Virus record (IMG/VR): IMGVR_UViG_2721755711_000002
Strand: one strand, 5' to 3'
Source: a virus
Lineage: Duplodnaviria; Heunggongvirae; Uroviricota; Caudoviricetes
DNA: 64,000 nt
Below the pieces are notes generated by a model. It saw only the letters and a list, made by a program, of their open reading frames with translations, searched no databases and had not been told where the DNA came from. Positions within the stretch are counted from its first letter, which is position 1; each line of letters starts with the position of its first letter. The translations under genes were made by a program, and so were the position numbers. This document shows, in pieces, positions 18,558 through 20,769 of the stretch.

Positions 18558-18580
18558 AAAAAAACCGCCGAAGCGGTTTT
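18558..18580. terminator. Bidirectional intrinsic terminator
   Basis: A-run, accgc-cgaa-gcggt hairpin, T-run; downstream of DUF1311 gene on - strand. Confidence 0.55.
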
Positions 18581-18588
18581 AAGTTAAC

Positions 18589-19335
18589 TTATTTTGCCTG
18601 TTTCATTTTTTCCACCCTCTCAAGCATTCTTTTTACATTTGATGGAGGATAGTTAAATTCATCGCCGTCTCCAAAAGAAATTTTTATAGGCTTCATTTTC
18701 ATAACCAATTCTTTCAGAACCGCTTTACCAATTTCAGTTTTTGGTACTATAAAACCATTTCCATACAAGCATGATTTATAAGTTTTATAATATTCACCAT
18801 TAATCAAAATTGGTGGATACTCTAATGGCCCATCAATTTGCACTGAATTATCGCAAAATCCATTGCCTTTAGATTTTGAAGCAATAAAAATAGCTATTGT
18901 CCCATCATCGCCATACATCAGGAATCTATTTTTACTAACACCTTCCAGTGGAGGTAATATTATCAGTGCACCATCAATATACCATTCAGCGTAATTCTTT
19001 GATTCATTGATTATGTTCTCATTAATTTCATTTAAAGATGAATATTCCCTGAATGCATTAGAATACCATTGTCGAACACATGATTCTGTTTTGCACTTCT
19101 CTCTTTCATTCCACAAGTCTGAAACAATTTTTCTAAAAGCTTTCTTATCAGCGCTCTCTAACTTTACTTTTTGATATAAAGAATTTAATTTATCATCAAG
19201 TTCAGATAATTCACTGTTGCTGCAAATTAACTTTTCAGAATATGATTTAGCTTTCGAGCAATCAAAAGATACCGCATTCGCAGTTCCGATTTGTAATAAA
19301 AAAGCAAACACTACAAATAATTTAAACTTAATCAT
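18589..19335 (-). CDS. Secreted protein with N-terminal DUF1311 / LprI-like domain (cargo gene)
   Basis: Signal peptide MIKFKLFVVFAFLLQIGTANA; FDCSKAKSYSEKLICSNSELSELDDKLNSLY pattern; AT-rich; RBS aggag. Confidence 0.55.
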   Translation of the reverse strand: MIKFKLFVVFAFLLQIGTANAVSFDCSKAKSYSEKLICSNSELSELDDKLNSLYQKVKLESADKKAFRKIVSDLWNEREKCKTESCVRQWYSNAFREYSSLNEINENIINESKNYAEWYIDGALIILPPLEGVSKNRFLMYGDDGTIAIFIASKSKGNGFCDNSVQIDGPLEYPPILINGEYYKTYKSCLYGNGFIVPKTEIGKAVLKELVMKMKPIKISFGDGDEFNYPPSNVKRMLERVEKMKQAK

Positions 19336-19667
19336 CCGTAATCTCCTTAAAAACAGGAGATTAAATTTTACCCATTCTTAATGTCCGTTCAAGTTCATAC
19401 TTTACAACCGCGCCCAGTTGAGTATGATTAAGCGCATGAGGCGTCGAAACCTCTTCTCAGTGCGGTCACAACCAACCCCGTTAGTGTTGGATTTTTTATG
19501 CCTGCTATTTAGTGATGGCACAATGTGCGGTCACATCCCCGAACAATGTCGGGAGGGCGACGAATACAACACCCGAAAGGGGAATAAGTCCGCGGCCTCA
19601 CTGAGCCGTTTCGAACCTCCCGGCTCCACTCCGATAGTGGAAATTCGAAAAAATCAGTGAGGTCGTT

Positions 19668-20237
19668 ATGACAATACAATTAATCCCCGTTTTCAACGGA
19701 ACTATCTCAAACGAAACCGCCCTACTCTGTAATGCTCGTGATCTGCACGCTTTTCTTGGTGTAGGTAAGGTTTTCGCAGCCTGGATTACATCCCGCATCG
19801 CAGAATACGGATTTACAGAAAATCAAGATTACATTTTGCTTTCCAAAACAGGAAAGCAATCGTTAGGAGGCAGAGGAGGACATAACCGCAAGGACTACCA
19901 CCTCACCCTAGACACCGCCAAAGAACTGGCAATGGTCGAGCGCAACGAAAAAGGACGCCAGATCCGCCGATACTTCATCGAGTGCGAGAAGAAGCTGCGC
20001 GAAGATACCACCAGCACACAATCCCCTCTGAATGTTGACATCATCATGCGCGTCAGAAACGGCTCGGTTACCCACATTGAGCACCACAAATCAGGCTCAG
20101 TTATCACCACAGAATGGGCAATTCACTTACTACGCAAAAGTGGATGGATTGTCATGCCACGCGATGAACTTCTTAACACGCCACTGGCCCAATTGATGCC
20201 CGAAAACTTGCCTCAAACCGGAACCTGCGTCCGGTAA
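19668..20237 (+). CDS. AntA/AntB-type antirepressor-like protein (cargo gene, opposite strand)
   Basis: N-terminal NARDLHAFLGVGKVFAAWITSRIAEYGF resembles AntA domain; RBS gtgagg. Confidence 0.5.
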   Translation: MTIQLIPVFNGTISNETALLCNARDLHAFLGVGKVFAAWITSRIAEYGFTENQDYILLSKTGKQSLGGRGGHNRKDYHLTLDTAKELAMVERNEKGRQIRRYFIECEKKLREDTTSTQSPLNVDIIMRVRNGSVTHIEHHKSGSVITTEWAIHLLRKSGWIVMPRDELLNTPLAQLMPENLPQTGTCVR

Positions 20238-20560
20238 CTGGTTCCGTTAAAAAACACAACATCGATGTTATAGGTGGGGTTCTCTGCCCCATCTACTTTT
20301 GAAATTGCCAGCGATGCAAAATACCCGGCATACTGTTGCTGAACCATGTTCACATAGTAGTCCGGGTAAATCTGCTGCACGATGCACTGCTGCGCTGGAA
20401 TGCCGTAATTCGCGTAAAACGGCGACTCCCCCAACCCCAGCTTTAACGTCTGAATGAGCGTCGTCAGCCAGCCGTAGGAGAAATCACCGTTGGTGTCAGA
20501 TTCTACTGCAACCCATTTTTTGTTGCCGTTCGCGTCGTTGACGCGGCCCCATGTTCTCAT
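20213..20560 (-). CDS. Hypothetical protein, possibly gp25/W-like baseplate wedge
   Basis: ~115 aa at the position expected for W between spike and J; weak motif support only. Confidence 0.3.
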   Translation of the reverse strand: MRTWGRVNDANGNKKWVAVESDTNGDFSYGWLTTLIQTLKLGLGESPFYANYGIPAQQCIVQQIYPDYYVNMVQQQYAGYFASLAISKVDGAENPTYNIDVVFFNGTSYRTQVPV

Positions 20561-20741
20561 CGCGCCCTCACCACCATCGGATCTGACCAACAAAATAACC
20601 AGACGCAAGAATCAGAAAGACCAACCAAATAAGCAAAAACTTCCAGGTGGATAATTTTTCAGCCATAACTCGAATCTCCCGAATCAGTTTGCTAAAATCA
20701 AACACGACTTCTCCTTGCCTTATTCAAGGTCAGAAACAAAA

Positions 20742-20769
20742 AGCCCCGACTGTTTGCCCAGTCGGGGCT
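20742..20769 (-). terminator. Intrinsic terminator-like hairpin downstream of spike gene
   Basis: 9-bp stem agccccgac/gtcggggct; U-run on - strand. Confidence 0.5.

Follow-up and report, generated by a model that had tools for sequence, protein, structure and literature searches.

The stretch of DNA analyzed here, called the window throughout, is the 64,000-nucleotide IMG/VR virus record IMGVR_UViG_2721755711_000002. It carries an E. coli prophage of the Rac type, lambdoid and equipped with genes for a contractile tail, the baseplate operon of which contains a slot between the J gene and a gene that we call W-like by position only, since its product has no Pfam match. Two genes of another kind lie in this slot: on the minus strand, a gene for a secreted protein of 248 amino acids (aa), and on the plus strand, ant, which encodes an AntA-type antirepressor. 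The non-coding stretch upstream of ant is the ant leader, and it carries an RNA of the sRNA-Xcc1 family. The two genes belong to independent cassettes, here termed A (secreted protein, 18547-19400) and B (ant and its leader, 19401-20237). The RNA has two target sites that vary together with its loop from phage to phage, one of them lying over the ribosome-binding site of ant. The features of the locus are collected in Table 1.

Table 1. Features of the slot between the W-position gene and J and of its flank in the window (GS, Rfam or Pfam gathering score; UTR, untranslated region; ORF, open reading frame)
Feature	Position	Strand	Properties
Intrinsic terminator of the secreted-protein cassette	18558-18580	−	8-bp stem, UUCG loop, U7, −10.3 kcal/mol; just before the J ribosome-binding site
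Cargo gene, 248-aa secreted protein	18589-19335	−	signal peptide, DUF1311/LprI-like N-domain and rare C-domain; GC 0.312
5′-UTR hairpin of the cargo gene	19340-19362	−	AAUCUCCU / AGGAGAUU; includes Shine-Dalgarno AAGGAG
Promoter-like site of the cargo gene	19365-19392	−	TTGAAC, 16 nt spacer, TAAAAT; consensus scan 9/12
Promoter-like site of the ant cassette; left cassette border	19401-19428	+	TTTACA, 16 nt spacer, TATGAT; 10/12, best in region
First target region	19438-19467	+	hairpin GAGGCGTCGAAACCTC with UCGAAA box, then CUCAGUGcGGUC, complementary to the hairpin-2 loop
Weak terminator-like hairpin	19472-19497	+	CCAAC...GUUGG + U6; fold only −4.7 kcal/mol
sRNA-Xcc1 (RF02221)	19548-19632	+	72.4 bits (GS 53), E 1.7e-12, model positions 1-87/87
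Second target region	19644-19666	+	box UUCGAAA vs RNA junction; UCAGUGAGGUCGU vs hairpin-2 loop, covers ant Shine-Dalgarno GAGG
AntA-type antirepressor gene (ant)	19668-20237	+	PF08346, 90.5 bits (GS 27), E 1.1e-25, residues 22-93
W-position baseplate gene, 115 aa	20213-20560	−	phrog_7986, E 3e-63; conserved backbone; in all relatives read
45-aa hydrophobic ORF	20568-20705	−	GTG start; phrog_6632, E 2e-28; kept in relatives L002, L107 and L006
Strong hairpin right after the V-like gene	20739-20772	terminator-like on −	14-bp stem; UUUUUGUUU tail

The slot is bounded by the stop codon of the W-position gene on one side and the J ribosome-binding site on the other (18547-20212; J ATG at 18546), and similarity between alleles is lost immediately past the former and immediately ahead of the latter. 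A J gene at least 95% identical to that of the window is present in 88 of 5426 complete E. coli genomes. The LprI-like cassette occurs in 11 of these 88 and in 11 of the 5426 overall, and the ant/W junction is kept in 61 of the 87 genomes having a W-like gene. Besides the arrangement of the window, the slot can hold a YafO toxin pair with ant and the LprI-like gene, rac62/rac61 with ant, or ant with other ORFs of unassigned type. Two genomes that were read have a 386-aa HSDR_N nuclease-like gene and no ant, an allele that is probably present in about 26 genomes, to judge from the match pattern of the ant/W junction search. The metagenome relative L091 also has no ant and carries a stand-alone 158-aa homologue of the C-domain of the secreted protein. 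The W-J junction is a hotspot at which accessory cassettes recombine, and in the window it has received two independent ones. Cargo at a baseplate position had been considered uncommon when the sequence was first read, a view that does not fit the many alternative cassettes at this junction in the phage group.

The sequence-only reading had also taken 18558-20769 for a single AT-rich cargo island bracketed by two terminators, with a secreted LprI-like protein that could affect lysozyme interactions or the host envelope, a picture in which the protein would inhibit lysozyme or remodel the envelope as a form of lysogenic conversion. Both hairpins are real by the criteria of folding (−10.3 and −28.9 kcal/mol) and of compensatory changes in relatives, but the island is not one unit. 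Its two cassettes differ in composition and distribution, and only 18547-19400 is AT-rich (GC 0.319). The ant cassette (0.495) and the ant leader (0.513) are close to J (0.494), the W-like gene (0.509) and the whole window (0.497). The boundary between the cassettes falls exactly at the −35 hexamer of the ant promoter, and in alleles with different neighboring cargo similarity starts at this same hexamer. Moreover, the supposed island takes in the conserved W-position gene and the 45-aa ORF, and its right-hand hairpin is found between the V-like gene and the 45-aa ORF in every relative read, being kept with compensatory stem changes in L002, L107, L006 and L010. This hairpin (−28.9 kcal/mol and z −7.05 on the minus strand, −24.6 kcal/mol and z −5.25 on the plus strand) is conserved backbone and not a border of cargo; in its weaker plus-strand form it could end the ant transcript.

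The comparison of related prophages did bear out the expectation that the secreted-protein gene is dispensable cargo. An alternative in which both genes are conserved structural or assembly components of the baseplate would fit their location inside the operon and the fact that relatives of the C-domain are always found in tail modules. We regard it as extremely improbable, since the secreted-protein gene is absent from 77 of the 88 genomes with near-identical J and its product has a signal peptide, while ant runs on the other strand, is a member of a regulator family and is missing in L091 and in about 26 genomes. Neither protein is present in all relatives; conserved virion components shared by all of them were what the first reading had named as the finding that would speak against cargo.

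Cassette B is an immI-like antirepressor module on the strand opposite to the baseplate operon. The AntA-like nature of its gene, proposed from the first reading, is confirmed by the Pfam match, and the product matches PHROG anti-repressor families with E values down to 1e-66. The last 25 nt of ant overlap the opposite-strand 3′ end of the W-position gene, an overlap that is also seen in phage Rac-SA53 and other relatives. The leader had been described as a GC-rich structured non-coding stretch. Structure is borne out by the fold (z −4.6) and by the Rfam match above the gathering score, whereas the base composition hardly differs from that of the window, and the identity of the stretch as an ant leader bearing sRNA-Xcc1 had been missed. 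The match to sRNA-Xcc1 was recovered again in a scan of the whole window. The RNA, a three-way junction, is composed of a 9-bp closing stem, a GAAA-tetraloop hairpin, a hairpin 2 with a variable loop (19595-19606), a single-stranded junction UUUCGAA (19609-19615) and a UCCA tail. An 80-aa ORF (19418-19660) overlies the RNA and was rejected as a gene, because element lengths of 84-90 nt among relatives would break the reading frame.

The hairpin-2 loop, GCGGCCUCACUGA, is complementary to UCAGUGAGGUCGU, which contains the Shine-Dalgarno sequence (SD) of ant, and the minimum free energy (MFE) fold of the entire leader pairs the loop with this SD. The bipartite duplex with the second target, made of a 13-bp and a 7-bp helix, has an energy of −35.0 kcal/mol against −12.9 ± 2.7 for shuffled targets (none of 500 as good), with a dimer gain of −11.8 kcal/mol. 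For the first target the duplex reaches −31.0 kcal/mol, compared with −21.2 ± 3.3 for shuffled targets. The stem of the weak terminator-like hairpin that follows the first target co-varies over taxa when read by eye (CCAAC/GTTGG, CCGCA/TGCGG, CCGC/GCGG, ATCAC/GTGAT); its loop keeps CCCGUNAG and the T-run is always next.

These features suggest the following mechanism. Transcription from the ant promoter would proceed through the first target, the weak terminator-like hairpin, the ~85-nt sRNA-Xcc1 and the second target over the ribosome-binding site into ant. The hairpin-2 loop and the junction would then pair with the SD region and the box, blocking ant translation in cis. Once excised, the RNA may also repress in trans, by analogy with C4 of phages P1 and P7, and its pairing at the upstream site may favor termination at the hairpin followed by the U-run.

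Support for such a lock comes from 18 distinct loci, made up of E. coli prophages, Aggregatibacter phage Aaphi23, phages of Mannheimia, Pasteurella, Moraxella and Vibrio and a Bro-N gene from a metagenome. The loop sequence differs among them, and both target sites change along with the loop. Complementarity was measured as the longest Watson-Crick run between loop and site, and pairings were permuted 20000 times. For the target at the ribosome-binding site, the mean was 7.78 nt in cognate pairs against 4.43 nt in permuted ones; for the upstream target, it was 7.61 against 5.06 nt. In neither case was any of the 20000 permutations as good. As loop and targets vary together, each variant would be expected to lock only its own ant, which would amount to immunity specificity.

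The pattern is not confined to these loci. A pattern scan over one genome per species, checked by a covariance model built here, gave 72 full-length members of sRNA-Xcc1 from Enterobacterales, Pasteurellaceae, Pseudomonas, Xanthomonadales, Neisseriaceae, Desulfovibrionaceae, Azospirillum and others. In 27 of 67 loci the loop shows complementarity of at least 7 nt to sequence ahead of the start codon, as predicted here. A scan of the genes that follow covered 25 of these 27 loci and gave 8 Bro-N, 4 AntA, 2 Rha, 2 KilA-N and 2 ORF6N proteins and 1 SymE. An NCC(A/C) tail follows the closing stem, with the second C present in 67 of the 72 members, which is circumstantial evidence for excision by RNase P; the discrete 88-nt RNA seen in X. 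campestris pv. campestris (PMC2996969) is evidence of the same kind. In an alignment of 78 family members, 92.8% of cells are paired compared with 77.2% in shuffles and the covariation score is 0.418 compared with 0.171 (0 of 500), counts that lean towards structure because the alignment was fitted to a model built from our own sequences. All slid controls scored lower, and four of the five pairs of the hairpin-2 stem change on both sides. The consensus structure was taken from RNAalifold and captures only 14 pairs, and MAFFT misregistered the closing stems of two subgroups.

A further line of evidence comes from replacement. In front of Ant homologues that are 60-66% identical, isrK (RF01394) and C4 (RF01695) stand in place of sRNA-Xcc1 and end ~50 nt before the ATG. 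Four of five such loci have a site immediately upstream of the start codon to which the C4 loop is complementary (7-9 nt). The best of these is L083, where the site adjoins the Shine-Dalgarno sequence, and several loci have a junction box upstream.

Several observations weigh against the lock. When all taxa are taken together, the upstream site matches the loop more often (at least 7 nt; 54 of 69 loci) than the ribosome-binding site does (31 of 69), so that translational blocking may not be the sole or primary action of sRNA-Xcc1. In Xanthomonadales, where the family was defined, the upstream site was found and no complementarity to the ribosome-binding site. Work in Xanthomonas described sRNA-Xcc1 as a trans-acting RNA with many computationally predicted target genes (PMC2996969). 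The C4 covariance model (RF01695) has no match at E ≤1 in 18000-21500, so the RNA is not filed under C4, and its kinship rests on topology, position and logic and not on detectable homology. In addition, promoter-like sites picked up by the consensus scan are as frequent in the region as in shuffled sequence.

Some of these points would suit a different view, namely that sRNA-Xcc1 is no C4-type immunity RNA. It could work in cis alone, as a lock in the leader that temperature, a protein or a ligand would open, or it could be an sRNA that acts in trans on host genes and happens to lie near ant. Even without cleavage, the leader has the loop-SD helix in its MFE fold in cis, the RNA of X. campestris pv. 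campestris (Xcc) is a discrete 88-nt species (PMC2996969), and the missing complementarity in Xanthomonadales and the lack of a C4 model match point the same way. Incidental linkage, however, cannot explain the joint change of loop, upstream site and ribosome-binding region in 18 loci, nor the same pattern in 27 further species, where the downstream genes are of antirepressor type or SymE. Three features agree with the P1 design: the target has a second copy upstream of the RNA, an NCC tail follows a long closing stem, and isrK and C4 take the place of sRNA-Xcc1 in front of homologous ant genes. Action in cis and in trans are compatible with each other. We consider this alternative unlikely. 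For the overall reading, that is a hotspot holding a moron together with sRNA-Xcc1 as a C4-type lock on ant, we estimate a probability of roughly 0.7.

Other observations on ant leaders may be added here. A dyad (GCGCCCAAT ... ATTGGGCGC in relatives) lies over the −10 hexamer of the ant promoter at about 19410-19435 of the window and can be seen better in L030 and L021; a protein repressor acting in addition to the RNA may use it as an operator. L090 contains tandem copies of sRNA-Xcc1 with different loops (1164-1249 and 1377-1462) before one Ant homologue, the ribosome-binding site of which is matched by the loop of the second copy. In the viral contig L088, group II intron domains (2246-2532; RF02001, 135 bits; RF01998) are located immediately downstream of an Ant homologue. 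In Vibrio phage VPBES (L098 1313-2351), an opposite-strand cassette between tail genes consists of sRNA-Xcc1, an 80-aa KilA-N ORF and a gene for a DNA-binding protein. Two other small RNAs were considered and set aside. The only match to sar RNA in the window (24.4 bits, E 0.09) is at chance level and falls on the terminator hairpin at 20709-20775. The phage microRNA-size RNA 24B_1, which is said to act on d_ant of the Stx phage phi24B, is a different element, as it is encoded in the lom region and not before ant.

Cassette A is a classical moron, made of foreign AT-rich DNA with a promoter-like site and an intrinsic terminator of its own. It is absent from close relatives that share the flanks, and its base composition deviates from theirs. 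Whenever the last cargo gene points the same way as J, the allele has a hairpin with a T-run before J, and the stems vary: CCGC/GCGG in the window, CCCGC/GCGGG in L107 and CCCGCC/GGCGGG in L091 and L095. Where the neighboring cargo gene is on the other strand, this terminator is absent. The 5′-UTR hairpin of the cargo gene folds at −10 kcal/mol, with 3 of 200 shuffles equally stable. In the lysogen, the secreted-protein gene would be transcribed independently, with transcription stopping before J. During lytic growth, polymerase modified by Q would read through both internal terminators; such read-through is expected from the behavior of lambdoid phages, given that a Q-type antiterminator is present.

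The product of cassette A was correctly described from the first reading as a secreted DUF1311/LprI-like protein. The N-terminus, MIKFKLFVVFAFLLQIGTANA/VS, is signal-peptide-like and is followed by the motif FDCSKAKSYSEKLICSNSELSELDDKLNSLY, and the protein is predicted to be exported to the periplasm. It has six Cys in all. The N-domain (residues ~22-105) is helical and DUF1311/LprI-like with four Cys, and the C-domain (114-247) is alpha/beta with two Cys that are invariant or nearly so. The match to Pfam LprI (PF07007) stays below the threshold (18.2 bits against a gathering score of 22; residues 26-66, profile positions 1-47 of 106). An exhaustive phmmer search with residues 1-105 gave 3732 relatives fused to many different C-terminal domains, among them a protein with a strong PF07007 match, which establishes homology to bona fide PF07007 proteins. 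The N-half also matches phrog_33858. By contrast with this abundance, relatives of the C-domain form only 6 clusters in a database of 5.8 billion sequences.

The idea of an interaction with lysozyme, which belongs to the single-island reading, rests on a family name: the NCBI Prokaryotic Genome Annotation Pipeline (PGAP) product name is 'lysozyme inhibitor LprI family'. The signal peptide and the DUF1311-like domain are in line with it, as are reports that DUF1311 proteins are among candidate immunity proteins against cell-wall-targeting type VI secretion system (T6SS) effectors (PMC12135965) and that the PF07007 protein ScwA of Salmonella controls the level of the lytic transglycosylase MltD (PMC7933661). 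On the other hand, a Pfam scan of the 248-aa protein gave no match to MliC (PF09864) in addition to the LprI score below the cut-off, and no lipobox was read before the first Cys, Cys26. In M. tuberculosis LprI, it is the separate MliC domain that was described as sufficient for lysozyme resistance, and ScwA, which has PF07007 only, showed no lysozyme phenotype (PMC7933661). Taken with the division into two cassettes and the backbone nature of the second terminator, this makes the single-island reading quite improbable.

The neighbors of related genes give another indication. All four C-domain relatives with a readable gene context are located in contractile-tail or baseplate modules. That of L091 lies between W and J, and that of L095 is preceded by W, by a YafO pair and by a Bro-N gene on the other strand that has an sRNA-Xcc1 of its own. 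In L094 the gene follows the hub, V and W genes, and in L093, which has a Mu-like tail, it follows an SLT tape-measure gene and a DNA_circ_N gene. The tape-measure gene, where visible (L091 and L093), has an SLT domain, and the protein in the tape-measure position of the window prophage has an SLT lytic-transglycosylase domain as well (E 1e-20; residues ~481-578 of the product of 23463-25436). By analogy with T4 Spackle, the secreted protein may target an enzyme that cleaves the cell wall, perhaps the SLT domain in the tape-measure protein of related phages entering the cell, and so cause superinfection exclusion. This is the role we favor, although as a guess it is more likely wrong than right. 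The protein has no homology or fold match to any characterized inhibitor, Spackle included, and no match in PADLOC. The SLT-bearing tape-measure proteins may also be a mere trait of the lineage and not a functional partner. As for the fold, the AlphaFold2 (AF2) model from a 10-sequence alignment has a predicted local distance difference test (pLDDT) score of 72, the single-sequence model being unusable (41). A Foldseek search against BFVD gave only uncharacterized phage proteins, an 'LprI-like' protein of RB49 and a weak IalB-like match. The C-domain profile found nothing below E 0.3 among PDB sequences, and Pfam, PADLOC and solved folds likewise gave no match that would account for this domain.

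The same domain evidence would equally serve a moron that raises host fitness, the protein shielding the lysogen from external cell-wall hydrolases such as T6SS effectors and host lysozymes or tuning the lytic transglycosylases of the host. In Bordetella phage IFTN9 a DUF1311-like gene comes directly behind the CI/Xre repressor gene, a position typical of genes expressed in the lysogen. Against this stands the restriction of C-domain relatives to contractile-tail modules, together with the recurrence of DUF1311-like genes between baseplate and tail-fiber genes of Yersinia and Klebsiella phages and their presence in lytic RB49-like phages. A host-directed role is possible, if on balance somewhat unlikely; the distribution in tail modules favors a phage-directed role without being decisive.

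With regard to the other contents of the slot, the HSDR_N allele was seen in E. coli 214-4 and EC11 (L107 2202-3362, minus strand, and L108), which belong to a sister lineage. The 386-aa protein has type I restriction HSDR_N domains, is not recognized by PADLOC and may be an uncatalogued single-gene defense candidate. Pfam gave no match for 8 of 10 alternative cargo proteins scanned, and PADLOC none for either cargo protein of the window or for nine others that come from the slot or its relatives. A second, smaller variable junction is located between the V-like and W-like genes (window 20561-20807; L006 2963-4062; L010 2654-3491). ETEC1706 (L006) has an added Rha/ORF11CD3 regulator gene there and STEC719 (L010) a different content, and in L091 there is neither a gap nor an ORF.

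The assignment of the window to a Rac-type prophage is based on E. coli F2_407_2_2, which is 99.9% identical over the baseplate/cargo region and whose annotation has a single lambdoid prophage of Rac type, flanked by uspF and ttcA. Its genes are int (split by IS903B) and xisR on the ttcA side, ralR, recET, kilR, a RacR-like helix-turn-helix gene, replication genes (protein P) and a DUF1133/Q-type antiterminator, after which lysis, head and contractile-tail genes follow on the minus strand. The closest isolated relative is phage Rac-SA53 (93%). The insertion of IS903B into the integrase gene was seen in NZ_CP074756.1 next to ttcA (L106 10508-12809), and the Rac-type prophage, otherwise complete-looking, may therefore be unable to excise. 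Coordinates of the window (about 25436-45200) and of NZ_CP074756.1 (L004) drift apart by ~+2.1 kb, with a tRNA at 45118 vs. 43022, and the window has stop codons at the coordinates of two coding sequences annotated in this 99.9%-identical record. The window is thus a close relative of NZ_CP074756.1 and not the exact record. The baseplate region of PP818812.1 ('Actinobacillus phage vB_Apl-pPE4', L003) is 96.8% identical to that of the E. coli Rac-type prophage, which casts doubt on Actinobacillus as the host given for this record. It has a shortened ant gene without an sRNA-Xcc1 match.

Two features elsewhere in the window deserve mention. The Rfam sok antitoxin RNA matches at 50948-51122 on the minus strand (113.5 bits, gathering score 59), and a Hok/Gef toxin gene is annotated near this position in the near-identical genome, so that the early region of the prophage has a hok/sok type I toxin-antitoxin pair. 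The convergent ORFs at 13380-14015 (+) and 13980-14645 (−) encode almost the same tail-fiber N-terminus (MSVLISGVLTDGAG... and MSVVISGALIDGAG...), an inverted duplication located at the distal tail-fiber gene that could be an invertible or switching segment for host range.

The hotspot, the moron and an ant under antisense control are all of known kinds, as represented by P1/P7 immI, Gifsy-1 IsrK, P22 immI and lambdoid morons. What is shown here is the membership of the leader RNA in a defined family, its two co-varying targets and its positional replacement by C4. The family is annotated in many genomes and has been treated as an sRNA of Xanthomonas and Xylella that acts in trans and is linked to virulence (PMC2996969, PMC12189769). 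It has been recorded upstream of symE in Xanthomonas integron cassettes (10.1101/2025.06.18.660453) and upstream of an ORF6N gene in APSE phages (10.1101/2020.03.17.996009). No statement of an antirepressor-lock function was found in the literature mentioning sRNA-Xcc1, the original 2011 paper being outside that search. In phages of at least five bacterial families, the loop tracks the ribosome-binding site of the next gene (Ant, Bro-N, KilA-N, Rha or ORF6N, and SymE once) as well as the upstream site. The lock reading would give these RNAs a simple function in holding down an antirepressor or toxin gene, along with a rule by which the target of each can be predicted from its sequence. It also suggests how co-resident prophages, such as the many ant-bearing Stx phages of Shiga toxin-producing E. 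coli (STEC), could avoid or exploit cross-induction.

The slot itself is ordinary phage biology, its chief use being to show at which site this phage group keeps accessory and defense-like genes. The C-domain family offers a small, clean target in the search for a new exclusion mechanism tied to tail enzymes. A bolder proposal would join both cassettes: the DUF1311/C-domain protein and the stand-alone C-domain relatives would form a new periplasmic exclusion family directed at the tape-measure SLT domain, and RNAs of the sRNA-Xcc1 type would make up a second class of C4-like immunity RNAs, widespread and programmable, with loop variants that sort co-resident prophages into incompatibility groups. 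We consider this joint proposal unlikely.

Cassette A has its nearest parallel in the morons of lambdoid phages, a concept that goes back to Hendrix and Juhala; gp15 of HK97 is a tail-region moron that gives superinfection exclusion. It shares with lambdoid morons a foreign composition, a place between late genes, a promoter-like site, a terminator, dispensability and presence in only some relatives. Its product is predicted to be a soluble exported two-domain protein, unlike gp15, which is a membrane protein. T4 Spackle is a periplasmic inhibitor of the tail-spike lysozyme gp5 (PMC7677548). The likeness lies in the pairing of a phage-encoded, presumably periplasmic protein with a cell-wall-cleaving domain of the tail, in this case SLT. 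There is no similarity in sequence or fold, the enzyme is a lytic transglycosylase instead of a lysozyme, and the gene belongs to a temperate prophage, whereas that of Spackle is an early lytic gene. LprI and ScwA share with the secreted protein an exported cysteine-containing helical domain, and ScwA is likewise soluble and periplasmic, horizontally acquired and low in GC (PMC7933661). The protein of the window differs from them in its sub-threshold Pfam score, in having neither MliC nor the features of a lipoprotein, and in the N-terminal placement of its DUF1311-like domain, which is fused to the rare C-domain.

For cassette B, the IsrK/C4 leader of Gifsy-1 has the same order of target region, terminator-like hairpin, structured RNA and gene, with an equal distance from the ATG. 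The short IsrK RNA of Gifsy-1 reportedly activates the long transcript's translation (PMC4825925). The RNA families of the two leaders differ. The immI region of P22 (mnt, arc, ant and sar RNA) also lies within a late operon, and its sar antisense RNA acts at the ant ribosome-binding site. Both are antirepressor modules among late structural genes that are controlled by a small antisense RNA and that late transcription must pass through. In P22, however, sar is on the strand opposite to its target and the Arc and Mnt repressors take part, whereas the RNA of cassette B is co-directional with ant, lies upstream of it and has no arc- or mnt-like gene beside it.

The closest model for cassette B is immI of P1 and P7, where C4 is processed by RNase P and its loops pair with a ribosome-binding site and an upstream sequence (PMC5320573). 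The closing stem is 9 bp in sRNA-Xcc1 and 17 bp in C4, processing by RNase P is only presumed for the former, and the cassette lies inside a baseplate operon on the opposite strand. Cassette B has no icd-like leader ORF, and since the target is the ribosome-binding site of ant itself, Rho-dependent polarity through icd need not be involved. In both cases an RNA of ~80 nt is encoded upstream of an antirepressor gene on the same strand, and it has a closing stem, a tetraloop hairpin, a variable-loop hairpin, a single-stranded junction and an NCC tail. In both, loop and junction match a ribosome-binding site and a box, with a duplicate pair of targets upstream of the RNA, and the specificity of immunity, as set by a few loop nucleotides in P1 and P7, would be set in the same way in the prophage of the window.

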